Notes: generated by a model from the sequence alone, not told the origin. Positions 1,591 through 41,025 are shown, numbered from the stretch's first letter. The stretch: DNA of 64,000 bases from Candidatus Kaiserbacteria bacterium (GCA_016217965.1 JACRFI010000009.1:3144-67143), one strand, 5' to 3'. Translations and numbers: made by a program.

Positions 1591-1613
1591 ATACATAGGG
1601 TAACCCTATGCAT
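1591..1613. repeat. REP-like 23-bp palindrome, copy 2, immediately 5' of rayT
   Basis: ATACATAGGGTAACCCTATGCAT. Its core CATAGGGT-A-ACCCTATG abuts the RAYT ORF start. Confidence 0.8.
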
Positions 1614-15882: not shown

Positions 15883-17470
15883 ACAATTTTAGATTCTTTC
15901 CAAGGCGCGATAGACGCCAGAAATCCACATGAAGATAGTGCCCAAGATTATACTCTACATCCGCATACGTTCCATCTGAGGAACCGCCCCGAAAACTGAT
16001 CGTCGGCTTGGGTGCACATGCCTCATCCGGCACCTTGTCCGTCACGAGGAGCACACGGCTATATTGAGAAAGGTCCACTGAACCTCTTTCACCTAATTTG
16101 GTAAGCACGGCAGAAGTGAAATCGGCATCTTCCACGGAAGCTCGCCAATACTGGCACTTACTCTCACACACTTCGTCGTGCAAGAGATTTGCCGTGCGTT
16201 TGTTGAGAGGCAGATCCAGTTCCACGACATCATTGATGATGAGAGCATCATCCTGATTGAAATCCTGCACAACATAACGCGCCGCTACATTATATGTAGT
16301 GGGAACGCTCAAAAGATACAATATATATACGAGTGCGATAGTTTGCACGCAGCAAAATCCCCAGAGCACCAAGCGCATCTTCGTAAAAGTGATGGATACA
16401 ATCGCGCCGGAAAAGAAGAACGCCAGAGGAAACAGATAGTGCAATACTCTGCCCGTATCGGAGACGTGCGGTACGACCATGGCTATCGTTAGAAAATAAA
16501 GGCTGGCATACCCGATGGAGAAAAAAAACAAACGTTTGTTTTCTATCGCGCGCGCCGCGGCGGCCATCGCAAGAACAAGGATAACAAGTGGAAATGCCAC
16601 GAACACTTGCTGGGCATGGAAGCCAAGCGACGTGAAAAACGAGAAAGTGTCAGCACCCGAAACTTCGCTACCCCAGCTCCGAAATATTTCGTTTGTGAGA
16701 GTAGAAACTACTAATGCGTATATGTTCTCAATATTGGCAGCCAAGACCGCCAGGAACAGTAGCCCGCCTCCCAATAGACCGGTGAGGAGAGCACGCTTTT
16801 GAAGCGCGTCATGCCGCGACGCAATGAAGAGGATCGGTATGTTAATAAGAAAAATGCCATAGAGCGGGAAATTCGCGAACGCGGCGAACGCAAGCACTAT
16901 CGCAAAGAATATCGGCCCGAATCTCGGCACAGGCACACTCTCAGCCGAGTGCTTCAGGGCAACATACGTACAGAGCGCAGAGGCTGCTGCCAGTGCTGTT
17001 GAAAGCACCCACATTTTCCCCGTATGGAGCGTTACCGTCGATACCACTGTGGCGAAGATAACGGAAAGCGATGCAAAACGATGTGCCACGGAGAGGCCCT
17101 CTGACCGGAGAAAACGATCATACAGAATGGCAATGCCCGTGGCGACGCAAGCGCTCAGAAGCCGTGGGACAAAATACGCCACTTCTGGGTGGATGATAAG
17201 ATACGTTTTAAGGTCAATTGCACTAAAGCCGTGCCAAACTAGCAGTATGAAAAGATATGGAAGCTGCAGAACATAATTCAGATAGAACGTGATCGTGCCA
17301 TACGGCAGATCTCCTGGAAGTGGAACGATGCTTTTCATCTCTATCGCGCGCAAAACACCGCCCACAAAATATTGCTCGTCGAAAACGACGCTGAGGAGTG
17401 GGAGGGCGTGCCATATACCAACAAAAGAGCAGATGACAAAAAAGGCGGGCACGAGGCGCAGATGCGACAT
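15833..17470 (-). CDS. Polytopic membrane glycosyltransferase, GT-C fold-like (GtrB-partner/ArnT/PMT-like)
   Basis: About 545 aa with 10 or more TM helices. Operonic with gtrA and GT2. The start was chosen at the internal Met. Confidence 0.4.
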   Translation of the reverse strand: MSHLRLVPAFFVICSFVGIWHALPLLSVVFDEQYFVGGVLRAIEMKSIVPLPGDLPYGTITFYLNYVLQLPYLFILLVWHGFSAIDLKTYLIIHPEVAYFVPRLLSACVATGIAILYDRFLRSEGLSVAHRFASLSVIFATVVSTVTLHTGKMWVLSTALAAASALCTYVALKHSAESVPVPRFGPIFFAIVLAFAAFANFPLYGIFLINIPILFIASRHDALQKRALLTGLLGGGLLFLAVLAANIENIYALVVSTLTNEIFRSWGSEVSGADTFSFFTSLGFHAQQVFVAFPLVILVLAMAAAARAIENKRLFFFSIGYASLYFLTIAMVVPHVSDTGRVLHYLFPLAFFFSGAIVSITFTKMRLVLWGFCCVQTIALVYILYLLSVPTTYNVAARYVVQDFNQDDALIINDVVELDLPLNKRTANLLHDEVCESKCQYWRASVEDADFTSAVLTKLGERGSVDLSQYSRVLLVTDKVPDEACAPKPTISFRGGSSDGTYADVEYNLGHYLHVDFWRLSRLGKNLKLYELTRTCAADVLGATE

Positions 17471-17483
17471 GCGCACAATGGTA

Positions 17484-18212
17484 CTATATTCGAAAACCCA
17501 CGCGATACATGATGAGAGCGAAGAGAAACGCGACAATGGCCCGCACATTCACGAACGATGAGCGCCCTTTCTGCTTGAGGAACACACTCGGCACTTGTGC
17601 GACGCGGAAATTCTTGTAACACGCCTGAATTACCATCTCGGCATCAATGAACCAATCATCCGCTTCGAGCGTAAGGAGACTGAGCGCGTTACGAGTAAAT
17701 ATTTTTGGTTTGGCGTTTGCATCGTAAATCGTTACTCGAGGAAACAACACGCGCAACAACGTATTGTATATTCGCGAAATCAATATGCGCTCAAGGCCAT
17801 CGTGCCGCTTCACCCGGTACGTAAGCGCCATATCACTCGCATCTTCCATAAGCGCATCATAGACGCGCACAACATCTTGGATAGGATTCTGCCCATCGCC
17901 GTCGATGAACGCGATCGTTCTGCCCTCTGCTTCCTTAAGCCCCGTCTTCACATCCCATCCGAACATCCCTTTTTTCTCAAGCGTCACGGCGATTATGCGC
18001 TCCTCGCGCGAGGCAATGTCCCGAACGATGCCAGGCGTCGCATCACTCTCCTTTTCATCTGCATTGTAATTTCCCACAAGGACTAATCTGTAGGTAAGAT
18101 TTCTAGAGTCGAGACATTGCTTTGCCTGCTGCACAAATTCCCGCACTCGTTCACCGCCCTTATAACAGAGAATGACCAGCGTCAGGTCAACATCCTTTCC
18201 CCCTTCCGTCAT
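17484..18212 (-). CDS. GT2 polyprenol-phosphate glycosyltransferase (GtrB/DPM1-like)
   Basis: LVILCYKGGERV..., DGDGQN, C-terminal TM helix; 242 aa. Confidence 0.8.
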   Translation of the reverse strand: MTEGGKDVDLTLVILCYKGGERVREFVQQAKQCLDSRNLTYRLVLVGNYNADEKESDATPGIVRDIASREERIIAVTLEKKGMFGWDVKTGLKEAEGRTIAFIDGDGQNPIQDVVRVYDALMEDASDMALTYRVKRHDGLERILISRIYNTLLRVLFPRVTIYDANAKPKIFTRNALSLLTLEADDWFIDAEMVIQACYKNFRVAQVPSVFLKQKGRSSFVNVRAIVAFLFALIMYRVGFRI

Positions 18213-19100: not shown

Positions 19101-20312
19101 ATGAGAAAACCCAGTGTCCTTGTCGTGCTGCCATACGGCTTCAATGAGCGCATGGTGAACTTCATCGAGTTTGTTGTGAGCCGAATGCTTGCACAGAATG
19201 GGTGGCGCGTCATAGGAATTGCCCGGAGCGAACAAGGGCTTCCGCAAAACCACACTGTGCGGGACATAGAAGTGCATAGGTACAAAAGCACTCTTTCAGG
19301 ATTATTTCTTGTCCTAAAAATCTTCTTGAGGGATCGTCCCGACATTGTGCACGTCCATACGCTCCGCAACAACCGCGTTGGCATCTTTGTGTCCATCCTC
19401 TCCAAACTGAGCGCGACTCCTCTCGCATTCACAGAAAGCGGATTATTGCACGACCACTATCTCGTCGCCGATCGCGATGACCCGCTTCAAAAACCAATAG
19501 CCTACAATAATTTCGTCCGCCGGTTTGCAGATATTTTTACGAGCGGACAGGTGCTTTTCCGTTTCAAAAGCTACCTCTTCCACTTTGCGCTCTCACATGC
19601 GGATGCTGTTATTTTCCACTCCCATCACAATCTGCCGATTGCCGAAAAGCTAGGGCTAAAAAACGCACACTTACTCCCGCAAATATTGGACGAATCCAGG
19701 TGGAGTGATTCTGCGCACAGCGCGCACAAGGAAGAAGCCGCGAGTGCGATTGCAGGAATAAAGGAACCCTGCGCACTCTTCGTGGGGCAGATCAAGATGC
19801 GCAAGGGCTGGGACATTCTTCTCCGGTCCATTCCACACGTTCCCAAAGAGATAATCCACACGTTCATCATGGTAACGTCCTCCTCCGCGAGAGAAACCGA
19901 GGATGTTATAGCGCTGATCGATGAGCTTAAGGTGCGCGGCCGCGTGCTATTCCTCGGGCAGATATCGAATGCACTGCTGCGCCTGGCGTTCGAAAAGAGC
20001 ACACTTGTCGCCGTACCTTCACGCTATGAAGGTTTCGGGCTCGTACCACTTGAAGCGTTTGAAATGAAGCGGCCAGTCATCGCTTCGCGGGTGGAAGCCA
20101 TGACTGATTTTCTTGTTAACGGAAAAAACTCATACCTTGTTCCGCCAAAAGATCCGATAGCGCTTGCAAAAGGGGTCGTAGAGCTCGCACGAGACGAGGA
20201 ACTGCAGAACCGCCTCATTGCGGGCGGCCTCGCCACACTTGAGGAGATGCGGAGCGACGCCAATAGAAAAAAGTGGCTCGAGTTCTACAATGCGCTCCGC
20301 ACCCGTCTTTGA
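19101..20312 (+). CDS. GT4 (GT-B) glycosyltransferase
   Basis: C-terminal E-x7-E region (RYEGFGLVPLEAFEMKRPVIAS). Confidence 0.8.
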   Translation: MRKPSVLVVLPYGFNERMVNFIEFVVSRMLAQNGWRVIGIARSEQGLPQNHTVRDIEVHRYKSTLSGLFLVLKIFLRDRPDIVHVHTLRNNRVGIFVSILSKLSATPLAFTESGLLHDHYLVADRDDPLQKPIAYNNFVRRFADIFTSGQVLFRFKSYLFHFALSHADAVIFHSHHNLPIAEKLGLKNAHLLPQILDESRWSDSAHSAHKEEAASAIAGIKEPCALFVGQIKMRKGWDILLRSIPHVPKEIIHTFIMVTSSSARETEDVIALIDELKVRGRVLFLGQISNALLRLAFEKSTLVAVPSRYEGFGLVPLEAFEMKRPVIASRVEAMTDFLVNGKNSYLVPPKDPIALAKGVVELARDEELQNRLIAGGLATLEEMRSDANRKKWLEFYNALRTRL

Positions 20313-21835
20313 GGCGCATCCTCGCCTTCTACTACAAGGCGGATTTTCTTTGCGATAAAACCGGCAAACTCCTCGAGCGCAGCACGGCGCTTTTCACGGT
20401 CAGTCTCAAATTCCCAGATGTATATGAGGTCGCACACTGCGCTCTCTTCGAGAAGTGCCACAAAAAACCTGGTCACATCTTCAAGCCGAGCTTCTACAGT
20501 AAGCTGGCGCAATACCAACTCCGGCAACTCTTCCGGAACAGAAGAATGCGCGACAGAGGGCAGAGCATTGTAGAAGATGTGCCCAAACGTAATGACTGGT
20601 TTCCCTAGGAGCGTTGCTTCCCACCCGGCACCTCCTGAAATGATGGCGACAAGTTTCGACGCCCGTATGATATCGAAGCTCGATAGTTCCGGCCGTATCA
20701 GCCGCACATTCGGTATCTTCTTCAACTCCTTATAGTAGGCGCGAGGCCGAAAGGGCACCATTTGCGGATGCTCCTTTACGTACACATACATCCCCGCGGG
20801 AAGCGAGCGCGCGAGGCGGCGCACGATAGAAAGCTGATCCGTATCAAATGGAGCGAGGAGAAGAACCGTGAGCTCCGGCTCGTAATGAAGTGGGTAGAAG
20901 ACAAACGGCTTAGAGGGATCGTATGCATCGTACAAATCGTCAGCGCCGACAAGATTGCGCACCTTCCTGCGTACGCGGTCGACGACATAGTTGATAGGAT
21001 GCACGGTTATGTAATCGTCGCGCCTCTCCGACTCGCGAAGCCATTCGCGAACCATCTTTAGTATCCATCGCACGGATCGAAGAAGGTTATTCGGGAGCAA
21101 GAATTTAAAATACTTTCTCCTGCCGTGGTGAATCAACGACGCGTACGCTGCCGAATACATTGCTGGACGGGAGCGAAACTCTTCAATATGCCTGCGCGCT
21201 TGTTCATACCTAGGAATTGCCTCGAGCGCCGTGTTCTTATTCCTTTCGACCGCCTTCTCGACCCACGTCAGGCGGTCATACTCTAGAGAGAGTGATATAC
21301 GGTCCCGAGTCAAAGGATGCACGATAAAGATGACGGGAATGCCTCGCTTTTTAGCGATCGCATTCAAGAGAACCATCCACAAACCCCCCGGCAAATACGT
21401 AAAAACGAAATCAGGCCGCTCGCGGTCGAGGAACGCAGATATGTTCTTTGCATACACCTGCACAATGCGGAGCATCTCCTCATACGTGTATGGAGGCGTG
21501 TCGTACGGGTACTCGCGCACAAGCTGGCCCAAGCGGATCACGCGGTCAACATTGATGAACGACCAGAGGTTGCCGTGTTCTTTCTCGAACGCTTCCAGGT
21601 ATGGGAGATCCAGCAATTCGGTGCGATATTGCTTGTGGATGTCCTCATCAAGCATGATGCTCGTGTACTCAATATCCTTTTGCGATACGAGAAAGTCGTA
21701 GCTACCCCGCTGGTTTGCAAAAACACAGAACTCTCCGATCCCGTGCTTTTCTTTCAAGAGGACTGCGAGCTCATGCCCGACGTAGGCAAACTGCCGCTGC
21801 AACACGAGGCATCCTTTCATAGCGATGAGAGCCAA
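20285..21835 (-). CDS. Capsule_synth family protein (KpsS/KpsC-like GT-B; paralog of 45435-46850)
   Basis: Shares KPFVFYPLHYEPE, KEHPQ and GGAGWEATLLGKPVITFGHIFY with the paralog. Resembles the KpsS/KpsC (G-F/V-E-A-L..GKPV..G..Y) core. Confidence 0.5.
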   Translation of the reverse strand: MALIAMKGCLVLQRQFAYVGHELAVLLKEKHGIGEFCVFANQRGSYDFLVSQKDIEYTSIMLDEDIHKQYRTELLDLPYLEAFEKEHGNLWSFINVDRVIRLGQLVREYPYDTPPYTYEEMLRIVQVYAKNISAFLDRERPDFVFTYLPGGLWMVLLNAIAKKRGIPVIFIVHPLTRDRISLSLEYDRLTWVEKAVERNKNTALEAIPRYEQARRHIEEFRSRPAMYSAAYASLIHHGRRKYFKFLLPNNLLRSVRWILKMVREWLRESERRDDYITVHPINYVVDRVRRKVRNLVGADDLYDAYDPSKPFVFYPLHYEPELTVLLLAPFDTDQLSIVRRLARSLPAGMYVYVKEHPQMVPFRPRAYYKELKKIPNVRLIRPELSSFDIIRASKLVAIISGGAGWEATLLGKPVITFGHIFYNALPSVAHSSVPEELPELVLRQLTVEARLEDVTRFFVALLEESAVCDLIYIWEFETDREKRRAALEEFAGFIAKKIRLVVEGEDAPQRRVRSAL

Positions 21836-21860: not shown

Positions 21861-22655
21861 ATGGCACACTCTTTTTTCGACGGCGCGTACGTATCATATT
21901 GGAAAGAAAGGGTGGGAAACGCGGCCGACGGATCGAAAGTCTCTGATGAGAGCGTCGTTTCTTTCTTTCTTCAGAAACTGCCACTTGCAAAAAATAGCAG
22001 CGTTCTCGACCTCGGATGCGGGCACGGAAGGCTCTTTCCACTCCTCCATGAGAAAAGCGACCATATCGAAGGCGCTGATGTGACCGATGAAGCTGTAGCT
22101 GAATGCGCAAAGCTTCCGTACAAAAACGTGGTAAAAGGATCCGCAGAAAACACAACGCTCCCCTCAAACTATTTCGATGCGGTAGTTGCGTGGGCAACCT
22201 ACGACGTTGTGGAACAGGAAGCCGCGCTTGTTGAAGAAAATAGGATATTAAAAAAGGGTGGATACCTGCTTATTACCGGAAAAAACAAAGGATACGAGCC
22301 GACGGATGATCTGGCGTTCATCGCCGAGAGAAATGCGAAATTGAAAGATTTCCCGAACCACTTCACGGATGTATATGGACTCATCAAAGAGAGCTCGCTC
22401 TACGGATTCAGCGTGCGTGCCGGAGTTGGATTCCCGAGGCGAGGCGATTTCGGCAACCTGCAATTTTTCGACCTGCAGGCCGAAGAGCGCCCATGCTACG
22501 AATTCCTGCTGATACTTGAAAAAGAGGGAGCGCCCGCGCACGAGCGGCCCCTGATATGTTATGAATACAGCGACGTCGCAAAAGAGCAGGCGAAAGAGCA
22601 TCAGTTTGATGATGTACGCCAGTTCTTTCAGTGGCATGCACAGAACCATGGCTAA
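21861..22655 (+). CDS. Class I SAM-dependent methyltransferase
   Basis: LDLGCGHGR motif I and later MT motifs. Confidence 0.7.
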   Translation: MAHSFFDGAYVSYWKERVGNAADGSKVSDESVVSFFLQKLPLAKNSSVLDLGCGHGRLFPLLHEKSDHIEGADVTDEAVAECAKLPYKNVVKGSAENTTLPSNYFDAVVAWATYDVVEQEAALVEENRILKKGGYLLITGKNKGYEPTDDLAFIAERNAKLKDFPNHFTDVYGLIKESSLYGFSVRAGVGFPRRGDFGNLQFFDLQAEERPCYEFLLILEKEGAPAHERPLICYEYSDVAKEQAKEHQFDDVRQFFQWHAQNHG

Positions 22656-24018
22656 ACCAGGCATCGTCCACATTGTCCACCACGTTGATGCCGAGGGCCC
22701 ACTTTTCGAGGAGCCTGCGGAGACCCTTAAACGCATCGAAACAACATTCGGCACCAAACTTCCCTTTCCAAAAACTGGTCCCACGCTGCAAAAACTGCAG
22801 AGGGGAGAGCTTACCGTAGATGGAATACACGCTGCAAAGATGCAGGCTATGCTTGATCCGCACACGCTTCACACGCTCGGAACATGGAAACAGGTGCGCG
22901 CAATGTTGAAAAGAGTGACTGCGCGCGAGTTCCGCATGGAGGAGAAGGATAGTTTCGGCGGTGGATGGGTGTTCAACTGGCACGTGATGGACCATGTTGG
23001 ATTCAAAACAAATGAAAGGGGGAGAGATCTTGGATACCTGAAGATATTCAACGTATACGAGAAGATGCTTGCCGAGGACGAATCAAGGCGCGACGCTATC
23101 CATTGGCACTTTCACCCGATATCGCATTACAAGGAAGCGCATATCCCGGCAACCTCATACGATAATTCCTACCGCGAGATCCATGAAGTACTGTGCCGAC
23201 GCCTGATTGAAAAGAAATGGTTCCCGAGAGTCAATCGCGCTGGGTTCCATTCCGAACGGCCCGATTCAAATTGGTTTTTGGAACAATGGATTCCCTTTGA
23301 CGCATCGAACCAATCGATAGAAATGAGTGGCGAGGAGCAGCGGGATGCGATCAACGGCAGGTTCGGCGATTGGGCGGGTGCGCCAAGCGACTGGAGCATG
23401 TATCATCCCGATCTCTACGATTGGAGAAAAAAAGGAAACGCCCGGCGCGTTATCGCCCGCGCCCTGAACATGAGGTCACGCTTTAGGAACATCAACGAGC
23501 ACGAGTTGAAAAAAGCGTTCTCGAGAGCAGAAAAAGGCGAGAACATATACGTCGGCATCACGAATCACGATTGGCGTGATATGGAAGTTGAGATACGCGA
23601 TTTTAGAAAACTGCTCATTTCTACGCGTGCAGAGTTCCCCACCGTGGAATACAAATTCTCTGAATCGGTCGATGCGTTCAGAAGCGCCCTTGGACTGGCC
23701 CCCGATGTTATACAAGGAGCACGCATTGATCTTGATTGCACGCTCCAAGACGATGTCTTAGTTGTAAAGGTAACAAACGGAGAACCGTTTGGGCCACAAC
23801 CATACCTCGCAATAAAGACAAAAAAGGGAGAGTATTTCCACGACAACTTTGATTTTGGAGTGTTCAAGAAAACCTACATGTACACGCTGGATAGGTATAC
23901 GGTAGAGACAAAGGACATCGACACAATTGCGATTGCCTCGAATGATCTATACGGAAATACGTGCATATGCAACATTCGGTTCCACAAAAATTCCCCGAGC
24001 ACAAAGCATTTTCTTTGA
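22648..24018 (+). CDS. Hypothetical protein, possibly glycoside-hydrolase/deacetylase superfamily (GH38/GH57-like HxHxD N-terminus)
   Basis: HIVHHVDAEGP near the N-terminus plus additional His-rich motifs (WHFHP). No confident family assignment. ATG 22648 overlaps the upstream stop. Confidence 0.35.
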   Translation: MAKPGIVHIVHHVDAEGPLFEEPAETLKRIETTFGTKLPFPKTGPTLQKLQRGELTVDGIHAAKMQAMLDPHTLHTLGTWKQVRAMLKRVTAREFRMEEKDSFGGGWVFNWHVMDHVGFKTNERGRDLGYLKIFNVYEKMLAEDESRRDAIHWHFHPISHYKEAHIPATSYDNSYREIHEVLCRRLIEKKWFPRVNRAGFHSERPDSNWFLEQWIPFDASNQSIEMSGEEQRDAINGRFGDWAGAPSDWSMYHPDLYDWRKKGNARRVIARALNMRSRFRNINEHELKKAFSRAEKGENIYVGITNHDWRDMEVEIRDFRKLLISTRAEFPTVEYKFSESVDAFRSALGLAPDVIQGARIDLDCTLQDDVLVVKVTNGEPFGPQPYLAIKTKKGEYFHDNFDFGVFKKTYMYTLDRYTVETKDIDTIAIASNDLYGNTCICNIRFHKNSPSTKHFL

Positions 24019-24082
24019 GCCACCCCACTCTCTTGCGTTTCTGCGTATAGACAAGACTGAGATTTCGTGGCAAAATCACGGC

Positions 24083-24829
24083 GTGAAAAATCCTAGTGTT
24101 CTGACAGTAATACCTGCGAGAAGCGGTTCGAAGAGGATACCGAGCAAGAATATTCGCCTGTTCGCAGGGAAACCCCTTATCGTGCATACGATCAGGCAAG
24201 CAAAAAAGATCCCATTCATAGGACGAATTATTGTAGACACAGACTCAAAACAAATCGCCACGCTTGCGAGACACGAGAGCGCTGAAGTTCCCTTCCTCCG
24301 GCCTAAGCGCCTCGCAGGTGACACTTCGCAAGTGGCAGACAGCCTGCGGCACCTCCTTATGAGACTTAAATCAAACGAGGGATACGTCCCCGACTACGTG
24401 CTCATTCTCCAGGCAACATCCCCGCTCCGGAAACTTTCAGACATTACGGCCTGCTGGAGAGCGATGAAAAAAGGCGGAGCAACAACCGTACTCACTGTTA
24501 CCCCTACACATCCGCGTCTCTACCACATACGTCGCGGATTCATCGCGCTTGTGAATGGTTCCGAGAAAGACTCGACGAATATGCAGGCATGGGAAAGTGC
24601 GTACATACTAAATGGCTGCTTTGCCTACATCGTGAAGACTGCTGCATTTCTAAAAGAGGGCCGCATCATCACGAAAAAGACACGGCCAGTCATCTGCCCC
24701 AAATGGCGTTCCGTTGACCTCGACACCCCGGAGGATTGGGCGCTTGCGGAGCACCTCTTCAAGAACCGTGGTGCGATCGAAACCGCGATTCGGAAGATAG
24801 GGCGGGCTCATGCTATAAAAACAATATGA
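24083..24829 (+). CDS. CMP-nonulosonic acid synthetase (acylneuraminate cytidylyltransferase family, CTP_transf_3; NeuA/PseF/LegF-like), GTG start
   Basis: VIPARSGSKRIPSKN, P-loop-like N-terminus, about 248 aa. Confidence 0.8.
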   Translation: MKNPSVLTVIPARSGSKRIPSKNIRLFAGKPLIVHTIRQAKKIPFIGRIIVDTDSKQIATLARHESAEVPFLRPKRLAGDTSQVADSLRHLLMRLKSNEGYVPDYVLILQATSPLRKLSDITACWRAMKKGGATTVLTVTPTHPRLYHIRRGFIALVNGSEKDSTNMQAWESAYILNGCFAYIVKTAAFLKEGRIITKKTRPVICPKWRSVDLDTPEDWALAEHLFKNRGAIETAIRKIGRAHAIKTI

Positions 24830-25611
24830 ACCCTCACGGATTTGATGTTGCTGGCCGCACATACGTAGTGATCGGAGGGGCAGGACTCATTGGCAGCGCA
24901 TTCTCTCGCGCTCTTGGAGAAGCGGGATGCAACGTTGTTATCGCTGACGCGAACAAAAAGAGAGGTGCGGAGCTCCTTCAGAGCATCCGCAGAAGTGGCG
25001 GGAAAGCCCATTTCGAGCGTGTCGATATCGGAAGCGCGTCTTCCATCGAGAAACTCTCGAAAAAGGTCGTCAAGATGTTCGGCAGCGTACATGGCGTTGT
25101 AAACGCTGCATATCCGCGGACTCCGAAGTACCCGCAGGCTTTTGAGAAAACGCCGCAAAAGGAGACGGAGAAAAACCTTGCGCTCATGCTCGGCAGCAAT
25201 TTTTCTATCGTCCGCGCATTTTCTGGGCCCATGAAGAAACAAAAACATGGTTCCATAGTGCTCCTCGGTTCCATCTACGGCATAGCGGCTCCCCGCTTCA
25301 GCATTTACAAAGGAACGGACATGATAAACCCTCCCGAGTATGCTGCGGCAAAAGGTGGCACCATCATGCTCGCAAAGTACTTCGCATCTCTTCTCGGGCC
25401 GTACAACATCCGCGTGAATTCTATTTCCCCCGGGGGCGTTCTCAATAACCAGCCCAAACCGTTTTTGAAGGAATACGCGAAGCACGCGAAGCTCGCGCCC
25501 GGAATGCTTGTGCCAGAAGATCTTGCAGGCGCACTCATCTTTCTTTTCGGAGATGCGTCAAAAAAGGTCACAGGGCAGAACATCGTAGTTGACGGCGGCT
25601 GGACGATATGA
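24826..25611 (+). CDS. Short-chain dehydrogenase/reductase (SDR)
   Basis: GGAGLIGSA, a YAAAK-type catalytic motif, and ATGA overlap with neuA-like. Confidence 0.8.
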   Translation: MNPHGFDVAGRTYVVIGGAGLIGSAFSRALGEAGCNVVIADANKKRGAELLQSIRRSGGKAHFERVDIGSASSIEKLSKKVVKMFGSVHGVVNAAYPRTPKYPQAFEKTPQKETEKNLALMLGSNFSIVRAFSGPMKKQKHGSIVLLGSIYGIAAPRFSIYKGTDMINPPEYAAAKGGTIMLAKYFASLLGPYNIRVNSISPGGVLNNQPKPFLKEYAKHAKLAPGMLVPEDLAGALIFLFGDASKKVTGQNIVVDGGWTI

Positions 25612-26651
25612 AAACGCTGAAGATCGGAAAACACGCCATAGGAAAAGGCGTCTTTATAATCGCAGAAGCCGGGGTTAACCATAACGGAAGACTTGATCTT
25701 GCCCTAAAACTTGTTGATGCCGCAGCTGAGTGCGGTGCGGACGCTATCAAGTTCCAGACCTTCAGAGCACCAGAACTCGTAACGAGTGCTGGAAAAATGG
25801 CAGCATATCAAAAAAGAAACACAGGAAAAAATGAGAGCCAACTCTCGATGCTGCGCAAACTCGAACTCCGCGAGTCATTGTATGCGCCGATCATCGCACG
25901 GTGCAAAAAGCGCAACATACTGTTTCTTTCTGCCGCGCATGGCGGATTTGCCAGCGTTGACCTTCTTGCCGCTCTCGGAGTCCCCGCATTTAAATTCAGC
26001 TCAGCCGACCTCACCAATCTTCCGGTCCTATCCCACGCTGCCAGATACAAAAAGCCGATGATAATCTCGACTGGCATGGCAACAATGCAAGAGATAGAAG
26101 AGGCAGTGCGCGCGATCAAAAAGGAGGGCAACGACAAGATCATCATCTTGCAATGCACGACGGATTACCCGACTGATCCTAAAGAAGTGAACCTCCGCGC
26201 AATGCAAACGATCGCCCGCCGATTAGGAACTCATGTCGGTTTCTCAGACCACACCTCTGGCATGCAAGCTGCCATTATGGCGGCAACGCTCGGCGCGTGT
26301 GTGATAGAGAAACATCTGACACTCGATAAACATATGCAGGGCCCCGACCACGCAGCATCAGAAAATCCTCGGGAGTTCCGAAAGTTTGTGGATGCCATCC
26401 GGCTTGTCGAGCCTCTGCTCGGCTCCCGCACGAAAAAACCAACAGTCTCAGAGAAAAAATATATCCCGCTGGTCAGAAAGAGCATTGTCGCAAACTGTTC
26501 TATAAAAAAGGGAGAACTGTTCACTCGCGATTCAATCGCGATAAAGCGCCCAGGAACCGGGCTCCATCCGCGCTTTTTCTCCAGATTCCTTGGGAAAAAA
26601 GCGAAACGGAACATAGAGAAGGACGCGCCCCTCTTGAGAAGCGACATATGA
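25608..26651 (+). CDS. neuB: Nonulosonic acid synthase (NeuB/PseI/LegI family, with SAF domain)
   Basis: FIIAEAGVNHNG, KFQT, C-terminal SAF-like domain; 347 aa. Confidence 0.9.
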   Translation: MKTLKIGKHAIGKGVFIIAEAGVNHNGRLDLALKLVDAAAECGADAIKFQTFRAPELVTSAGKMAAYQKRNTGKNESQLSMLRKLELRESLYAPIIARCKKRNILFLSAAHGGFASVDLLAALGVPAFKFSSADLTNLPVLSHAARYKKPMIISTGMATMQEIEEAVRAIKKEGNDKIIILQCTTDYPTDPKEVNLRAMQTIARRLGTHVGFSDHTSGMQAAIMAATLGACVIEKHLTLDKHMQGPDHAASENPREFRKFVDAIRLVEPLLGSRTKKPTVSEKKYIPLVRKSIVANCSIKKGELFTRDSIAIKRPGTGLHPRFFSRFLGKKAKRNIEKDAPLLRSDI

Positions 26652-27796
26652 AAAAGAAATCGATCCTTGTGATTACTGGCACGCGAGCCGAGTATGGCCT
26701 CTTGTATGAGACGATACAGGCGCTTCAGAAGAGCCAACGGCTTTCGATGCGACTTCTCGTTACCGGCATGCATACGGTACGGAAGTACGGGTATACGTTG
26801 CAGGGCATACGGCGCGATAACATTCCGATCGCCTGCGTGGTGCCGATTCACGAACACGACACAATGCTTCAGGCCTTCGCCAAAGAAGTGCTCGGGATTG
26901 ACGCATATTGCGTTAAAACTCGCCCCGACATGATCCTCGTTCTCGGCGATCGGGGCGAACCGCTCGCCGGCGCGGTCGTGGCGGCTAACCTCAATATCCC
27001 CGTCGCACATATTCACGGAGGCGACACGAGCGGCATAACAACAGCAGACGAACTTGTGAGGCACAGCATCACCAAACTTTCGCACTTACACTTCCCCGTC
27101 TCGCCTGCGAGCGCGAAACGGCTTCGTGCGCTGGGTGAAGAATCGTGGCGCATCCACATGCTGGGAGCGCCTGGGATCGAACACATCGCAAGCGCCCGCT
27201 TCCCTTCTCGCGCTGCCGTGGCCAGAAAGCACGGGCTCGACCCGCAGAAACAATGGATACTAGTCGTGCACCACCCGACGCCGTTTGAGAAGGTGCCAAT
27301 GGAAAAACAAATACGCCCTCTTCTTTCCTCACTCACATCGCAGCAAAGACATGAAGAAAAGATCATCGTCTATCCCAATACTGATACGGGATCCGCTGTT
27401 TTTATTCGCGAGATCGATCGTGTTAGAAATGAACCGCGCGTGCACGTGTATCCCAATTTGGAGCGTGATGAATATCTACACCTTTTCCGCCATAGCGCAT
27501 GCATAATTGGAAATTCAAGTTCAGGAATTATTGAATCAACGCCACTCCACGTGCCTTCAATAACCATCGGCAGCAGGCAGGACGGGCGATCTCGCGGCAA
27601 AAACGTAATCAGTGCATCGTACGACGCATCATCGATCGAACGAGCGCTTAGGAAGGCGCTTGGTGCCACATTTGCGTCGCGGACGAAGAACGCAAAAAGC
27701 CCATACGGGTCGGGAAATGTGGGCAGTTCTATCGTGAAGCGACTTGAGAAATACGTGTGCGATCCACGGTTGTTCCATAAGCGAGTCGCCTCGTAA
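26648..27796 (+). CDS. neuC: UDP-N-acetylglucosamine 2-epimerase (hydrolysing), NeuC/LegG-like
   Basis: Typical N-terminus ILVITGTRAEYGLL, plus HIHGGD. Confidence 0.9.
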   Translation: MKKKSILVITGTRAEYGLLYETIQALQKSQRLSMRLLVTGMHTVRKYGYTLQGIRRDNIPIACVVPIHEHDTMLQAFAKEVLGIDAYCVKTRPDMILVLGDRGEPLAGAVVAANLNIPVAHIHGGDTSGITTADELVRHSITKLSHLHFPVSPASAKRLRALGEESWRIHMLGAPGIEHIASARFPSRAAVARKHGLDPQKQWILVVHHPTPFEKVPMEKQIRPLLSSLTSQQRHEEKIIVYPNTDTGSAVFIREIDRVRNEPRVHVYPNLERDEYLHLFRHSACIIGNSSSGIIESTPLHVPSITIGSRQDGRSRGKNVISASYDASSIERALRKALGATFASRTKNAKSPYGSGNVGSSIVKRLEKYVCDPRLFHKRVAS

Positions 27797-27797
27797 T

Positions 27798-28595
27798 ATG
27801 CAAAAAAAACAAACTCTACAAAGCGCCATATTTCTAGGCCGAAAGGAGGGCGCGCTCGGCGCGCTCCAATATCTTTTACAGCAAAAGGTCGCGATCAAGA
27901 TGGTGGTGAATCCAGGGGGCACAGACCTATCACTCCGCTCTTTCGCGCAAAAGCACAAGATCCGATTCCTCACCGACGACAGGATGCTGTACCGCACGAT
28001 AGAAAGAAAAGATGCATCAATTCGCGCAGACCTCGTCATCTCATACTTGTACCCAAAAAAGATCCGCCGTCCGCTTATCGAACATGCAAAACTCGGCTGC
28101 ATTAACTTTCACCCCGCTCCTCTTCCCGAGTATAGGGGCCGCGCGGGCTACAACACCGCGATCCTAGAAAAAAAGAAACGATTCGGGGTAAGCGCCCACG
28201 TTATCGATTCGGAGACATTTGATAGCGGCCCCATCATAGAGGTTCTTCGCTTCCGCATTGACCCTTCACACGAAAGCGTTCTTTCTCTCGAAAGACTCAC
28301 TCAGAAAAAACTGCTCGAGCTGTTCAAGATCGTTATCGCACGTTATAAAAAAGGCGCAGCTATTAAAACGAAGCAAAATCGGGGCGGCCTCTACTTGACC
28401 GCAGAGGGCCTTGAATCCATGAAACGCATCCTGCCGTCAGATTCCGCAAAAGACATACACCGAAAGATCCGCGCATTTTTCTTCCCGCCATATCGCGGCG
28501 CGACCATTGAAATTAAAGGAGAGACATTTACACTGGTCGACGACGAGATGCTTTCCGAACTTGGGAAACTTCTCAAAACACAGCGACACGTATGA
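27798..28595 (+). CDS. Formyltransferase (Fmt/ArnA-N-terminal-like sugar N-formyltransferase)
   Basis: Formyl_trans_N fold with the HPAPLPEYRG motif; 266 aa. Sits where N-acetyltransferases sit in canonical Pse/Leg operons. A8 tract at codons 2-4. Confidence 0.75.
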   Translation: MQKKQTLQSAIFLGRKEGALGALQYLLQQKVAIKMVVNPGGTDLSLRSFAQKHKIRFLTDDRMLYRTIERKDASIRADLVISYLYPKKIRRPLIEHAKLGCINFHPAPLPEYRGRAGYNTAILEKKKRFGVSAHVIDSETFDSGPIIEVLRFRIDPSHESVLSLERLTQKKLLELFKIVIARYKKGAAIKTKQNRGGLYLTAEGLESMKRILPSDSAKDIHRKIRAFFFPPYRGATIEIKGETFTLVDDEMLSELGKLLKTQRHV

Positions 28596-29725
28596 AGATC
28601 TACCCTACGGCGCGGCCATATATTGGAGTACGTGAAGAAAGATATGTGCTTCAGGCACTTCGCTCCGGAGTTCTCAGCATTGGGCCGTTCATCGAAAGAT
28701 TCGAGAAAGCGTTCGCAAAACGCTACGGCGTAAAATATGCCTGCGCGGTTTCGAGCGGTACGGCAGCTCTCCACCTCGCGCTCCTTGCGGCAGGAATACG
28801 TGAAGGCGACGAAGTGATCACGTCCCCGTATTCATTCGTTGCCTCCGCAAACGCGATCCTCTACGTCGGCGCAAAGCCGATATTCGCCGATATAGATGCG
28901 CGAACCTACAACATCGATCCGCGCGATATCGAAAGGCGAATTACGAAAAAAACAAAAGCCATTATGCCGATCCACATTTTCGGCCAACCCGCAGACATGT
29001 CAGCTATTATGAGGATCGCAAAGAAGCATAAGCTCCTCGTCATCGAGGACGCGTGCGAATCACTGCTATCAGAATGGAAAGGAAAGAAGGTAGGAACGTT
29101 CGGAAAAGCCGGCACATTCGCATTTTATCCGAACAAACAAATGACGACCGGAGAGGGTGGCATGATCGTGACGAACGACGCGTCTATGGATGCGCTGTGC
29201 CGTAGTATGCGCAATCAGGGGCGTGGGGAGGATGCGGCTTGGCTTGACCACCCGCGCCTCGGATTCAACTACCGCATGGATGAACTCTCAGCTGCTGTGG
29301 GGTTAGCCCAAATAGAGAATATACACTTCCTTCTGAAGGAGCGCGCAAAGATTGCCGCGTGGTATACCGAATTCTTCAAGGCGCTTGCTGATGATATCGA
29401 CGTGCCGTATATTGCGCCGCACGCCTCGCATACCTGGTTTGTATACGTGCTTCGCCTCAAGAATGGAGGCATAGACCGCGATGCATTCATTCAGGACTTA
29501 GCCCGTAGGGGCGTGCGATGCCGGCCGTATTTGCCTTCGATCCACCTCTTTCAGTTCTATCGAAAGAGATTCGGTTTTGCAAAAGGCGACTTGCCTGTTT
29601 CAGAAGCAGTAAGCGCGGGGACATTTGCGATCCCCTTTTACATCGGGCTCAAAAAGAGCGATGTACGCAGCATCGTACGGACCATAGAGCAAACACTTGC
29701 GATCCATGAAAAAAAACACGTTTAA
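28592..29725 (+). CDS. DegT/DnrJ/EryC1/StrS-family PLP aminotransferase (PseC/LegC-like)
   Basis: SSGTAALHLAL; the PLP-binding Lys lies in the ...FYPNKQMTTGEGG... region. Confidence 0.9.
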   Translation: MKIYPTARPYIGVREERYVLQALRSGVLSIGPFIERFEKAFAKRYGVKYACAVSSGTAALHLALLAAGIREGDEVITSPYSFVASANAILYVGAKPIFADIDARTYNIDPRDIERRITKKTKAIMPIHIFGQPADMSAIMRIAKKHKLLVIEDACESLLSEWKGKKVGTFGKAGTFAFYPNKQMTTGEGGMIVTNDASMDALCRSMRNQGRGEDAAWLDHPRLGFNYRMDELSAAVGLAQIENIHFLLKERAKIAAWYTEFFKALADDIDVPYIAPHASHTWFVYVLRLKNGGIDRDAFIQDLARRGVRCRPYLPSIHLFQFYRKRFGFAKGDLPVSEAVSAGTFAIPFYIGLKKSDVRSIVRTIEQTLAIHEKKHV

Positions 29726-30662
29726 AAACAAAACAGTGGTGGTGACGGGAGGCACGGGAAGTGTCGGCAGTGAAATAGTGCGCCAACTTTTGAGGACAAA
29801 CGTCCGGCAGGTGCGCATCTTTAGCCGCGACGAGCACAAACAGCACGAGTTGAAACATGAGATAGGCGGCGACAAACGAGTTCGATTCCTCATCGGCGAC
29901 GTTCGAGACAAAGAACGAATGGACTTTGCATTCAAAGGCGTCGACATCTGCTTCCATGCTGCAGCCCTAAAACACCTGCCAATGTGCGAGTACAACCCGT
30001 TCGAAGCAGTAAAAACCAACATCATCGGTACGCAGAACGTGATAGAAGTTGCCATTCGCAATAATGTCGAGAAGGTACTGGCGATCTCCACCGATAAGGC
30101 AGCGGACCCGGCATCAGTCCTCGGCGCGTCAAAACTGATGATGGAGCGCCTCGTTACAGCCGCGAACGCCACAGTCGGAAAAACCCGCACGCGATTCGCG
30201 TCGGTGCGGTTCGGGAACGTCCTCAATTCCCGCGGCTCGGTCGTACCTATTTGGCATAAGCAACTTGAAGCGGGAAAGAATATCACCGTAACCGACCCGA
30301 GCGCCACGCGCTTTCTCATGGAAATATCGGATGCGGCTGGACTCGTATTCCAGGCACTCGACGTCATGCGTGGCGGAGAAATATTCGTGCTCAAGATGAA
30401 GCCGGCAGCACGCATCATTGATCTTGCAAAAGAGTTCTTGAAGAAGCATCCAAAAGGCGCCAAGAGAAAGATCGATATCATCGGCCTCCGCCCCGGCGAG
30501 AAACTGCACGAAGTCTTGATGACGGAAGATGAATCGGGACACGCCGTTGAGATCAAGGGGATGTTCGTCATTTTGCCGCAAAGCGCGGATCCCCACAGCA
30601 TGCCGAAACTAGACTACAAAAAAGCGAAACGCGCGCCCCGTGGCGCATATAAGTCTAACTAG
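29706..30662 (+). CDS. UDP-GlcNAc 4,6-dehydratase (PseB/FlaA1/CapD-type, Polysacc_synt_2)
   Basis: VVVTGGTGSVGSEIV, the FlaA1-like TDKAADP motif, and YGASKLMMER. An upstream in-frame TTG at 29697 is possible. Confidence 0.85.
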   Translation: MKKNTFKNKTVVVTGGTGSVGSEIVRQLLRTNVRQVRIFSRDEHKQHELKHEIGGDKRVRFLIGDVRDKERMDFAFKGVDICFHAAALKHLPMCEYNPFEAVKTNIIGTQNVIEVAIRNNVEKVLAISTDKAADPASVLGASKLMMERLVTAANATVGKTRTRFASVRFGNVLNSRGSVVPIWHKQLEAGKNITVTDPSATRFLMEISDAAGLVFQALDVMRGGEIFVLKMKPAARIIDLAKEFLKKHPKGAKRKIDIIGLRPGEKLHEVLMTEDESGHAVEIKGMFVILPQSADPHSMPKLDYKKAKRAPRGAYKSN

Positions 30663-36209: not shown

Positions 36210-37121
36210 CTAAACATGCCTTTCGTGCCACGCAATCGTCGCGCGAAGGCCTGTTTCGAGATCAACAAGCGGAGTCCATCCAAGTTCCTTTTTTGCGCGG
36301 CGTATGTCCGCAACGACCCTATCAGGCCGCTCTGCAACACTTTCAAATTGCATCACCCCCTCATACCCAATGATCTTACCGATAAGAAGCGCAAGGTCAC
36401 GGATGGAGACTTCAATCCCTGAGGCTATATTAAGCGGCGTATCGGAATCGTAGCTCTCAGCTGCAGCAAGGATAGCCCTTGCCGCGTCTTCAACGAAGAG
36501 AAAATCTCGCGTTGACGCACCCCCTTGTTCGAGGAGTTGCGGCTTGTCCTCACGTTTTGCGGCTGCGATTTTCTTTATGAGTTTGGGGATCACGAAATCA
36601 TCCCTCTCTCCTGGGCCATACATGCTTGCAAGGAGTAGATGTGCGCTCTCTAATCCCTGCGCGCGTTGCTTTTTCGCTTCGAGAAGGATTTCCCGTTTCG
36701 CGCGGGCATATGCCGCGTGCTGGGGCTTTGGGTCTCCGCTCCACAAAGAATCTTCAGAGAGGGGCAACGCAGCATCCATCCCGTACTCTGTAAGGCTCCC
36801 TGCCATAACAAACTTCTCGGCTCCGCTTTCCCGCGCAGCACCGAGCATATTCATTCCCATCAGAAAATTGTCTTCATAGATGCGATTGGCGTTATCGCGA
36901 TGAAAAAGAATGCCACCTGTAATGCCGGCAAGATGAATAATGATGTGCGCTCCGCGAACCGCTTCCCTCGCTGCTTCTTTTGTCCGCAGGTCTCCTTTCT
37001 CACTCGAGTGCAATGCGATATTTTTTTCAGGAACGCCAATGGACTGCAAGCGCGCACATACGGCACGCCCTACAAATCCGCGTGCGCCTGTGAGGAGGAT
37101 TTTTTTATCACGCAGTTCCAT
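36210..37121 (-). CDS. GDP-sugar 3,5-epimerase/4-reductase (GDP-L-fucose synthase Fcl/WcaG-like)
   Basis: LLTGARGFVG and Fcl-like architecture. Start at the internal ATG (MELRDKK). Confidence 0.65.
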   Translation of the reverse strand: MELRDKKILLTGARGFVGRAVCARLQSIGVPEKNIALHSSEKGDLRTKEAAREAVRGAHIIIHLAGITGGILFHRDNANRIYEDNFLMGMNMLGAARESGAEKFVMAGSLTEYGMDAALPLSEDSLWSGDPKPQHAAYARAKREILLEAKKQRAQGLESAHLLLASMYGPGERDDFVIPKLIKKIAAAKREDKPQLLEQGGASTRDFLFVEDAARAILAAAESYDSDTPLNIASGIEVSIRDLALLIGKIIGYEGVMQFESVAERPDRVVADIRRAKKELGWTPLVDLETGLRATIAWHERHV

Positions 37122-37131
37122 GTCTTCTATG

Positions 37132-37959
37132 CTATATAGCGCGGAGAAAATATCGTGCGAGTCCCACGAAACGCATCGTGCCGTGCAACATAAAGAATGG
37201 AGCCGCGTATGCTTTCCCCGCACGGATCGCTCTCCACGAATACAGAAAGGGATAACGGATAAGGAGATGGAAAAGCATCGACGGCGCCCGATTCGGGTGC
37301 TTTCTGCAAAATTCACCATCTCCTTTGCCGTACATCTGGAATTTCTTTAGGTAAATGCCAAGATCGGCAAAGTGGTGCTGGACCACTTTCGTTTTGCCCA
37401 CGCCAACTCGAAGTTCCGGAAATTTTGAGAGCCGATACATGAAATCGGTGTCATCAACGGTCGATGTTAGGCTGTCGTTAAATCGTACTTTTTTGAATAC
37501 GCTCTTTTTATAGATGGATGGCGCCGTGCTTATCATCGTTCGCGGCCCGGGCGCATTCTGCGTCAATTCCCACAACGCACCTTCTGCTCTGTGCCAATAT
37601 CCAGTATCAGAAGATGATACGAGGCCGGCCTGCACAATATCCAAATCGTATTCCACCATATCTTTGTACAACGCCTCCAAGTCCTCCTTTTTTAAGCGAT
37701 GGTCTCCATCGATCATCGCAACAAGCTCATTTCTAGCCGCATCAATACCGATCTGCCTATCGCGCGTGAGATTTGAGTTCTTGCTTACGATGGTGTGGAT
37801 GCCGGGGAATTCTCGCGCAATTGCAACCGTCTTGTCGGAAGAATTCCCATCAACAAGGATAACCTCGTCAGGGTTATTTGCATATACGCCAACGAGGCAA
37901 TCGCGTATGCGCTTCTCTTCATTGCGCACGCACACGACAACAGATAGTTTCTCTCCCAT
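37132..37959 (-). CDS. GT2 glycosyltransferase
   Basis: LSVVVCVRNEEKRI, DGNSSD, DGD motifs. Confidence 0.75.
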   Translation of the reverse strand: MGEKLSVVVCVRNEEKRIRDCLVGVYANNPDEVILVDGNSSDKTVAIAREFPGIHTIVSKNSNLTRDRQIGIDAARNELVAMIDGDHRLKKEDLEALYKDMVEYDLDIVQAGLVSSSDTGYWHRAEGALWELTQNAPGPRTMISTAPSIYKKSVFKKVRFNDSLTSTVDDTDFMYRLSKFPELRVGVGKTKVVQHHFADLGIYLKKFQMYGKGDGEFCRKHPNRAPSMLFHLLIRYPFLYSWRAIRAGKAYAAPFFMLHGTMRFVGLARYFLRAI

Positions 37960-37960
37960 A

Positions 37961-39935: not shown

Positions 39936-39971
39936 TGCTGCAGGATACCATCGGCCTTCCCTCCCTGCCAC

Positions 39972-41024: not shown

Positions 41025-41025
41025 G

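Follow-up and report, generated by a model that had tools for sequence, protein, structure and literature searches.

A predicted legionaminic acid-type nonulosonic acid operon in Candidatus Kaiserbacteria with a sugar formyltransferase in the position of the N-acetyltransferase

Nonulosonic acids (NulOs) occupy the very ends of microbial glycans, and it is their N-acyl groups that determine charge and antigenicity and how phages, hosts and lectins recognise them. Here we describe a NulO operon in a 64,000-nucleotide stretch of DNA, hereafter the window, from a metagenome-assembled genome (MAG) of Candidatus Kaiserbacteria (GCA_016217965.1, JACRFI010000009.1:3144-67143), an ultra-small groundwater bacterium of the Parcubacteria/Patescibacteria group, i.e. 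of the candidate phyla radiation (CPR). ORF calling combined with Pfam and NCBIfam profiles gives nine consecutive, co-directional plus-strand ORFs (21861-30662), most of them overlapping by 4 nt. The last seven encode, in order, a CMP-nonulosonate synthetase (248 aa, GTG start, 24083-24829; CTP_transf_3, 82 bits), a PtmA-like short-chain dehydrogenase/reductase (SDR; 261 aa, 24826-25611; adh_short_C2, with 246 bits against PRK09186, cut-off 255, and 161.6 bits against FlagModPtmA), a Neu/Leg-type NulO synthase (NeuB; 347 aa, 25608-26651; TIGR03569, 423.7 bits, cut-off 399.65), a NeuC/LegG-type hydrolysing NDP-sugar 2-epimerase (382 aa, 26648-27796; TIGR03568, 370 bits, cut-off 235.9), a probable sugar N-formyltransferase (FT; 27798-28595), a pyridoxal phosphate-dependent NDP-4-keto-sugar aminotransferase of the DegT family (377 aa, 28592-29725; DegT_DnrJ_EryC1, 396.6 bits) and a UDP-GlcNAc 4,6-dehydratase of the PseB/CapE/SpsM type (318 aa, 29706-30662; Polysacc_synt_2, 354 bits). 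They are preceded by an S-adenosylmethionine-dependent methyltransferase, the first gene of the operon (264 aa, 21861-22655; Methyltransf_11, 54.9 bits), and by a 456-aa member of an uncharacterised family, which we call hyp456 (22648-24018); its ORF opens at 22561, and the true start is probably 22648. The coordinates, strand and domains of the seven downstream genes agree with an earlier interpretation drawn from the DNA alone (the sequence-only reading), except that FT, which it gave as 266 aa, has 265.

The junctions between consecutive genes, from methyltransferase/hyp456 to DegT/dehydratase, measure -8, +64, -4, -4, -4, +1, -4 and -20 nt, a minus sign denoting overlap; the genes thus look translationally coupled, as is typical for an operon. 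Its limits are marked upstream by a divergent Capsule_synth-like gene and downstream by a convergent aldo-keto reductase gene. A promoter and terminator consensus scan of 20-32.5 kb returned counts at the level of shuffled sequence and was uninformative for the operon boundaries. GC content is unremarkable across the operon, with no anomaly found, and thus gives no compositional sign of recent transfer. FT is identical to NCBI entry HY969_01560 and hyp456 to HY969_01535, both from a Candidatus Kaiserbacteria MAG, and the spacing of the HY969 locus tags is consistent with our gene calls.

The central question is what FT does. The sequence-only reading held that it would match the Formyl_trans_N profile and would not be a genuine methionyl-tRNA formyltransferase (Fmt), and both expectations were borne out. 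FT scores 58.7 bits against Formyl_trans_N (PF00551, cut-off 26.1); it reaches only 67.6 of the 201.5 bits set for the fmt equivalog model TIGR00460 and 36 of the 150 set for PurN, likewise fails the ArnA equivalog model by a wide margin, and has no Pfam match to the tRNA-binding domain Formyl_trans_C (PF02911). Asn103, His105 and Asp142 (codons at 28104-28106, 28110-28112 and 28221-28223, plus strand) are invariant in an alignment of 33 family members, which share the motifs GCINFHPAPLP and FDxGPII; we take these residues to be equivalent to Asn102, His104 and Asp140 of ArnA and to the triad of WbkC (NxH...D). Ranked by sequence against the PDB, the closest relatives are WbkC (54.7 bits), Fmt (46.7), ArnA (38.8), WlaRD (37.4) and, below all of these, PseJ (27.8; 27-28 bits for 6ci2/6ci4, E 2e-5). 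An AlphaFold2 model of FT (mean predicted local distance difference test score, pLDDT, 89.5) has WbkC (5vyt/5vyr) as its top Foldseek match, with an E of 9e-18, a TM score of 0.76-0.82 and a full-length alignment of ~250 columns at about 24-25% identity, and it also matches the sugar 4-N-formyltransferases WbtJ and Rv3404c. The length of 265 aa fits the size class of sugar formyltransferases (some 240-275 aa, in which a short C-terminal subdomain replaces the tRNA-binding barrel of Fmt). FT thus combines the domain, the intact triad, the small size and the fold of a sugar N-formyltransferase, and has neither the orthology-level similarity nor the Pse cluster context that would place it in the PseJ family. 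That it is the organism's Fmt, or another housekeeping folate enzyme merely located in the operon, is extremely improbable: Fmt structures do occur among its fold matches and pipelines of the Joint Genome Institute often label its homologues 'methionyl-tRNA formyltransferase', but the scores under the fmt and PurN cut-offs, the absence of Formyl_trans_C, the length, WbkC as top match and the conserved synteny with NulO clusters all speak against it. We are confident that FT is a sugar N-formyltransferase of the NulO pathway.

The second element of the argument is an enzyme that is missing. No GNAT or left-handed beta-helix (LbH, hexapeptide) acetyltransferase was found by Pfam in essentially all window ORFs that reach 150 aa. 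In tblastn, six PglD, LbH and GNAT queries from related loci returned nothing better than E = 0.08 from the window, and a crude hexapeptide-repeat regular expression gave only noise. A PglD, LegH or SpsD, as used in the UDP-linked legionaminic acid (Leg) pathway, is therefore absent from both operon and window, and the claim that the operon holds no separate acetyltransferase stands for the whole 64 kb. The gene order indicates what has taken its place. Three canonical Leg clusters retrieved via hyp456, from an Arcobacter flagellin island with Maf (L005), a Macellibacteroides capsule locus (L006) and a Bacteroidota-like genome (L089), run dehydratase-DegT-PglD-NeuB-NeuC, and the Kaiserbacteria operon runs NeuB-NeuC-FT-DegT-dehydratase. 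Given that PglD stands between DegT and NeuB/NeuC in the former and FT does so in the latter, FT holds the PglD slot, as the sequence-only reading had proposed.

This arrangement recurs in other genomes. A scan of species-representative genomes found FT relatives in 224 of them, and pathway genes were mapped by tblastn in 80 loci. Among the 22 loci with an FT identity of at least 47%, NeuB lies within 10 kb of FT in 20, DegT is immediately downstream of FT in 20, FT-DegT-dehydratase is kept in 18, and the complete order NeuB-NeuC-FT-DegT-dehydratase is found in 12, with 2 more ending at contig edges. A PglD-type match was seen in only one of the 22, on the opposite strand and in a separate cluster. 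Most of these loci belong to Patescibacteria MAGs (Saccharibacteria, Magasanik-, Yanofsky-, Falkow-, Nomura-, Niyogi-, Davies-, Roizman- and Peregrinibacteria), and a few to MAGs labelled Gammaproteobacteria. Homologues at greater distance (36-46% identity) are spread over Thermoleophilaceae, Omnitrophota, Acidobacteria, Bacillus songklensis, Fusobacterium and further groups. A Fusobacterium vincentii homologue (38% identity), the top match to FT in a plasmid collection, was set aside: NeuB is absent nearby, which points to a different sugar pathway. The identical five-gene order appears on a Woesearchaeota contig (L027, 1843-6900; FT identity 40%), which suggests either exchange of the module between ultra-small CPR bacteria and DPANN archaea or a binning artefact; a Micrarchaeota MAG (L035), also of DPANN, carries the FT family as well.

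The sequence-only reading spoke of a pathway of the Leg or pseudaminic acid (Pse) type, and of these the Leg part is supported and the Pse part is not. NeuB stays below the PseI model (285 bits, cut-off 340), ranks the Leg synthase SpsE of B. subtilis (232 bits) above PseI (190) and N. meningitidis NeuB (153) in the PDB, and is 46-48% identical to NeuB of the canonical clusters L005 and L006. The closest PDB relative of NeuC is the A. baumannii hydrolysing 2-epimerase of GDP/UDP-N,N'-diacetylbacillosamine (5xvs, 198 bits; the epimerase domain of GNE, 144). No PseG-like hydrolase was found in the operon by Pfam or NCBIfam, and the cytidylyltransferase, which has NeuA (9ftb) as its top PDB relative, remains under the PseF cut-off (TIGR03584, 149.5 bits against 205.7). 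The presence of NeuC, the affinity of NeuB to SpsE and the lack of PseG and PseI together argue that the pathway is Leg-type. Indeed, apart from the acetyltransferase, the operon holds the set of the UDP-linked Leg pathway, namely a 4,6-dehydratase, a C4 aminotransferase, NeuC/LegG, and a Neu/Leg synthase with a CMP-NulO synthetase. The first two enzymes are less decisive. DegT scores 302 bits against PseC and 299.7 against the LegC family (cut-off 420), under the cut-off in both cases. The dehydratase reaches 338.8 bits against PseB (TIGR03589, cut-off 407.75), and in its motif STDK...L-x3-K (STDKAADPASVLGASK) a Leu stands where PseB has Tyr and CapE and SpsM have Met, the motif of these enzymes being given as T-x9-[M/Y]-x3-K (PMC7439481). 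However, the UDP-linked Leg pathway of B. subtilis starts from SpsM, a CapE/PseB-like dehydratase (PMC7439481), so that a PseB-like dehydratase is compatible with Leg. On the configuration of the product the comparisons are mixed, the dehydratase being PseB-like and NeuC and NeuB Leg-like; a Leg (D-glycero-D-galacto) configuration is tentatively favoured, and its assignment at C8 and other stereocentres is provisional.

The SDR had been regarded as an extra component. This is not so, since a PtmA-like SDR is an ordinary part of Leg clusters and stands beside hyp456 in L005, L006 and L089. In Plesiomonas, ptmA is required for Leg-dependent flagellation, and mutants lose their flagella (PMC4481668). 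Such SDRs commonly accompany Leg genes, and the one in the window may have a part in sugar tailoring.

The methyltransferase and hyp456 had also been linked to the NulO by the sequence-only reading, and this link is strengthened, since the pair recurs in Leg clusters from other phyla and is fused elsewhere. The hyp456 family is large and highly conserved, with 1595 matches at 51-63% identity across phyla and with 931 clusters at 50% identity, and it is without a recognised relative: none of 38 family members had a Pfam match (0/38), hyp456 had no NCBIfam match, profile search found no PDB relative, and Foldseek with the catalytic domain found no PDB neighbour at E<=0.001. In the AlphaFold2 model of hyp456 (pLDDT 88.9) the N-terminal ~350 residues alternate strands and helices and are followed by a C-terminal beta-sandwich, and the invariant residues are mostly His, Asp and Glu. 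The dominance of these residues together with the strand/helix alternation suggests a metal-dependent enzyme, and hyp456 is a candidate NulO-tailoring metalloenzyme. It lies inside a Leg-type cluster in all six contexts examined (the window, L005, L006, L087, L088 and L089), which span CPR, Campylobacterota and Bacteroidota; a methyltransferase is adjacent or near in five of the six (all except L006) and an SDR in four. In L087 it occurs together with the same FT module. In three further proteins hyp456 is fused to a methyltransferase, in either order (P0241, P0351 and P0375), and in P0241 the methyltransferase half, N-terminal to the hyp456 domain, is clearly orthologous to that of the window. 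In P0339, a more distant relative, the fusion partner is a degenerate Formyl_trans_N-like domain. Two identities considered for hyp456 were discarded: PtmF is a 326-aa GFO/IDH/MocA oxidoreductase, and BLASTP against the proteins lacking Pfam matches in L001 and L003 was empty, so that hyp456 is not the PseA-like amidotransferase found at the equivalent position in CPR. In most CPR clusters with FT (L003, L008, L011-L014, L016, L020 and L021) the methyltransferase, hyp456 and SDR of the window are replaced by genes resembling HisF/HisH, an amidotransferase like PseA/WbpG and an oxidoreductase like PtmF, from which 5-acetimidoyl-7-formyl derivatives are predicted there.

Taken together, we propose a UDP-linked Leg-type pathway in which FT replaces PglD/LegH/SpsD and N7 is formylated at the stage of the UDP-sugar, a reading to which we assign a probability of roughly 0.6. 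Its substrate and formyl donor, the succession of reactions, the stereochemistry and the end product are predicted from sequence. The dehydratase would convert UDP-GlcNAc into UDP-4-keto-6-deoxy-HexNAc, which DegT would aminate at C4 to the UDP-4-amino sugar. FT would then move a formyl group from N10-formyl-tetrahydrofolate to the 4-amine, giving the UDP-4-formamido sugar, and the NeuC-type enzyme would remove UDP and epimerise C2 to release free 2-acetamido-4-formamido-2,4,6-trideoxyhexose. Condensation with phosphoenolpyruvate by NeuB would yield 5-acetamido-7-formamido-3,5,7,9-tetradeoxy-non-2-ulosonic acid, to be activated by the cytidylyltransferase to the CMP-NulO. The methyltransferase and hyp456, possibly with the PtmA-like SDR, may tailor the sugar further, and the Capsule_synth-like protein encoded divergently is a candidate for the enzyme that transfers the CMP-activated NulO. 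The N-formylated diamino NulO envisaged by the sequence-only reading, which left open Leg or Pse and N5 or N7, is thereby supported as a prediction and narrowed, with the Leg-type, 7-N-formyl form favoured.

Several observations weigh against this proposal. The acetyltransferase negative covers 64 kb, and a gene elsewhere in the genome is possible. FT co-occurs with LbH or GNAT acetyltransferases in some relatives (L001/L010, L016, L020, L057, L071 and L085), and thus is not always a substitute for one. The dehydratase is closest to inverting, 5-epimerising enzymes (PseB 2gn4, 279 bits; Pen 6bwc, 271; FnlA/CapE, about 250), with the retaining PglF at only 171, and DegT is closest to perosamine synthetase (3bn1, 299 bits; PglE 171, PseC 163); both enzymes fall under the NCBIfam equivalog cut-offs. 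FT-DegT-dehydratase is found without a nearby NeuB in L015 and L019, and among the relatives below 47% identity NeuB is nearby in only 10 of 62, a rarity that makes the NulO-associated FTs a sub-clade of a wider sugar-formyltransferase family. Finally, the methyltransferase/hyp456 module may alter the final structure. Among the loci with both activities, FT stands beside a PseH-like GNAT, without NeuC, in L001/L010, and has a PglD-like acetyltransferase directly adjacent in L057, L071 and L085; the products of these loci may be mixed or N5-formylated.

Other products can also be considered. A product like that of Candidatus Kuenenia stuttgartiensis would arise if FT formylated the DegT amine, hyp456 removed the 5-N-acetyl group and the methyltransferase acted on the result, leaving a zwitterionic 7-formamido NulO whose 5-amine is free or methylated; a role of hyp456 as an N-deacetylase that makes the substrate of the methyltransferase is speculation by analogy with Kuenenia chemistry. 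The CMP-NulOs of that organism have one formylated and one free amine, with methylated forms at +14 Da, and its cluster holds a deacetylase and an FT (bioRxiv 10.64898/2026.04.20.719630). The N-terminal domain of hyp456, with its fold pattern and its many invariant His, Asp and Glu residues, is like that of metal hydrolases, and the fusions to methyltransferases and, in the distant relative, to a Formyl_trans_N-like domain fit such a scheme. On the other hand, hyp456 matches no deacetylase family, nor any other, so that a deacetylase assignment made from the character of its motifs remains speculative; it is also present in ordinary PglD-bearing Leg clusters without FT (L005, L006 and L089) and absent from most CPR clusters with FT. 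We regard such a product as unlikely, if worth keeping in mind. Less is to be said for another stereoisomer, a 7-N-formyl 8-epi-Leg, a Pse-related acid or some other form, which would follow from an inverting PseB-type first enzyme and would fit the preference of the dehydratase for PseB and Pen over PglF, as well as the occurrence of a largely similar FT-DegT-dehydratase module (DegT 60% and dehydratase 52% identical) in L001/L010, where the partner is a PseH-like GNAT and NeuC is missing. Since no PseG-like hydrolase is present, PseI stays under its cut-off, the nearest relatives of NeuC and NeuB are proven enzymes of Leg pathways and Leg synthesis in B. subtilis itself begins with SpsM, we consider this outcome quite unlikely.

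The position of the formyl group and the unity of the pathway can be questioned in the same way. In Halorubrum, whose cluster pairs a NeuD/LegH-type acetyltransferase with a formyltransferase, the product is described as 5-N-formyl-Leg (PMC6137143), and FT and PglD stand side by side in L057, which also has PtmE, and in L085. By this precedent FT would act on a 2-amino intermediate, of the GlcN type or deacetylated, and N7 would be acylated by an unlinked acetyltransferase or not at all. But a PtmE-type nucleotidyltransferase, a recognised deacetylase and an acetyltransferase are all missing from the operon, the coupling of FT to DegT and dehydratase in close relatives is the signature of a 4-amine acceptor, and the nearest characterised relatives of FT (WbkC, WbtJ and Rv3404c) are 4-N-formyltransferases, which makes N5 an improbable site. 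It is more improbable still that the operon contains two pathways, with NeuC, NeuB and the CMP-transferase making CMP-N-acetylneuraminic acid and FT-DegT-dehydratase making a UDP-4-formamido-4,6-dideoxy-HexNAc that enters the glycan as a hexose. NeuB and NeuC do pass NCBIfam models named after sialic acid enzymes, and the three-gene module exists without NeuB in L015, L019 and many distant relatives; however, NeuB prefers SpsE to N. meningitidis NeuB, NeuC prefers the diacetylbacillosamine epimerase to GNE, and the strict order NeuB-NeuC-FT-DegT-dehydratase, with junctions of 1-4 nt, is kept in 12-14 loci, as expected of a single pathway. A 7-N-formyl Leg-type acid thus remains the reading we prefer.

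Replacement of an acetyl- by a formyltransferase has precedents. PseJ of Anoxybacillus kamchatkensis (6ci2, 6ci4, 6ci5 and 6edk) is likewise a folate-type FT in place of the N-acetyltransferase of a 5,7-diamino NulO pathway; in work attributed to Reimer et al. in 2018, it is said to formylate a UDP-4-amino-4,6-dideoxy sugar to the 7-formamido product. PseJ has been credited with completing the Pse5Ac7Fo pathway (PMC11040635). That pathway is Pse-type, whereas the one in the window is predicted to be Leg-type, and the weak match of FT to PseJ, below WbkC, Fmt and ArnA, makes independent recruitments likely. Halorubrum sp. PV6 carries legB, legC, legF, legG and legI with a predicted FT (HrrPV6_1050) in HrrPV6_1046-1053 and has N-formyl-Leg on its S-layer glycoprotein (PMC6137143); it differs in being an archaeon, in a product described as 5-N-formyl and in keeping the acetyltransferase homologues LegH and NeuD. 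Ca. Kuenenia stuttgartiensis has a Leg-type cluster with FT, and its formylated CMP-NulOs, including methylated ones, were detected experimentally (bioRxiv 10.64898/2026.04.20.719630); unlike the window, Kuenenia has a gene annotated as a deacetylase, and one of its amines stays free. Given PseJ, Halorubrum and Kuenenia, the acetyl-to-formyl swap is not a new principle, and the novelty suggested earlier is confined to the WbkC-like lineage of FT, the acetyltransferase-free cluster and the CPR host. Other systems share single features. The B. subtilis Sps pathway (SpsM, SpsC, SpsD, SpsG, SpsE as well as SpsF) is likewise UDP-linked, begins with a CapE/PseB-like dehydratase (PMC7439481) and contains the synthase closest to the NeuB of the window; it uses the acetyltransferase SpsD at the step where the window has FT, makes di-N-acetyl Leg, and has Met in SpsM where our dehydratase has Leu. 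In Brucella, the GDP-perosamine synthase Per and the GDP-perosamine N-formyltransferase WbkC likewise pair an aminotransferase with a 4-N-formyltransferase for a 4-amino-4,6-dideoxy sugar; among solved structures they come nearest to DegT and FT, but they work on a GDP-mannose-derived hexose of the O-antigen without any NulO synthase. The Leg/Ptm system of C. jejuni also has a PtmA-like SDR, paralogues of NeuB, NeuC and the CMP-transferase, and tailoring genes within the cluster; in contrast to the window, it uses GDP-linked precursors (LegB, PtmE and PtmF) and LegH, and its tailoring, via PtmG and PtmH, is acetimidoyl and N-methyl, not formyl.

The operon lies in a glycan island. At least 40 kb of the contig is given to glycan genes, including two NulO-type synthases, and Pfam finds many GT2 and GT4 glycosyltransferases, sugar dehydratases, epimerases, three DegT paralogues, methyltransferases and a second NeuB in the window. 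The divergent neighbour of the operon (20285-21835, minus strand) is a Capsule_synth protein of the KpsS/KpsC type (PF05159, 34.1 bits, cut-off 20) with an 'EHPQ' (HP) motif and a weak, partial match, at 27.4 bits well short of the cut-off of 200, to the BFO_1060 family, which includes transferases of Pse/Leg derivatives in Tannerella (PMC5420450). Capsule_synth homologues flank FT clusters in L001, L003, L015, L016 and L057, and from its sequence the protein is a candidate NulO transferase. A second Capsule_synth protein is encoded at 45435-46850 (minus strand), so that the two flank the two NulO clusters. The second cluster (36210-43440, minus strand) contains an 804-aa fusion of a FAD amine-oxidase/UDP-galactopyranose-mutase-like domain to a C-terminal NeuB+SAF part, which scores 375 bits against TIGR03569 and 308 against PseI, under the cut-off in each case. 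We know of no earlier description of such a flavoenzyme-NeuB fusion. The cluster also has an NAD-binding oxidoreductase, a DegT protein, a KdsB-like cytidylyltransferase, a GT2 protein and an epimerase; no NeuC and no acetyltransferase were found within 36210-43440.

Between 31593 and 36185 (minus strand), a HAD phosphatase, a SIS isomerase, a GHMP kinase, a GDP-mannose-4,6-dehydratase-like protein and a zinc-finger C-methyltransferase look like a GDP-heptose/6-deoxyheptose branch with C-methylation, and a second C-methyltransferase of the same type lies at 8139-9365. A Wzy_C protein with C-terminal tetratricopeptide (TPR) repeats, resembling an O-antigen ligase or PglL (5869-8082), an MsbA/PglK-type ABC exporter (46853-48670) and a PMT_2 membrane protein of GT39/83-like character (53076-54737), all on the minus strand, may indicate that the glycan is assembled in lipid-linked form and passed on en bloc, perhaps to a protein. 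A 653-aa fusion of GT4 to a partial UDP-glucose/GDP-mannose dehydrogenase, whose NAD-binding match begins at profile position 71, is encoded at 60203-62164 (minus strand). At the edge of the island, a weak match to an IS200-like Y1 transposase (1613-2317, plus strand; 25.8 bits) adjoins secA (2369-4903, minus strand). Three long ORFs in the island or next to it had no Pfam match (10803-12626 and 15833-17548, minus strand, and 21-1550, plus strand; 607, 571 and 509 aa), and the first two had no NCBIfam match either.

CPR bacteria, whose genomes measure about 1 Mb, live in attachment to host cells, and to our knowledge almost nothing is known of their surface glycans. In the literature searched we found nothing that links CPR or Patescibacteria to Leg or Pse biosynthesis, nor the term Leg5Ac7Fo. 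The proposal makes a testable prediction of the product, a formylated Leg-type acid 14.016 Da lighter than Leg5Ac7Ac. For its free acid, C12H20N2O8, the calculated mass is about 320.12 Da, compared with 334.14 Da for Leg5Ac7Ac. It also offers a signature by which the NulO-specific FT clade can be annotated, GCINFHPAPLP...RAFFFPPYxGA with an adjoining DegT, for proteins that pipelines now call 'methionyl-tRNA formyltransferase' or 'hypothetical'. The parts most worth attention are the distribution across CPR and DPANN and the module of hyp456 and methyltransferase; hyp456 represents a large unannotated family linked to Leg clusters in cultivable Arcobacter, Macellibacteroides and Chryseolinea, where it can be studied directly. 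More tentatively, and as a joint claim that we hold to be possible rather than probable, the NeuB-NeuC-FT-DegT-dehydratase module may mark a dedicated FT clade across many classes of Patescibacteria and in Woesearchaeota, with a 7-N-formyl Leg-type acid as a typical sugar on the surface of these ultra-small episymbionts, and the methyltransferase and hyp456 may constitute a new two-component NulO tailoring system, founded on an enzyme family for which no functionally characterised relative was found, and shared by Leg clusters of Campylobacterota, Bacteroidota and CPR.

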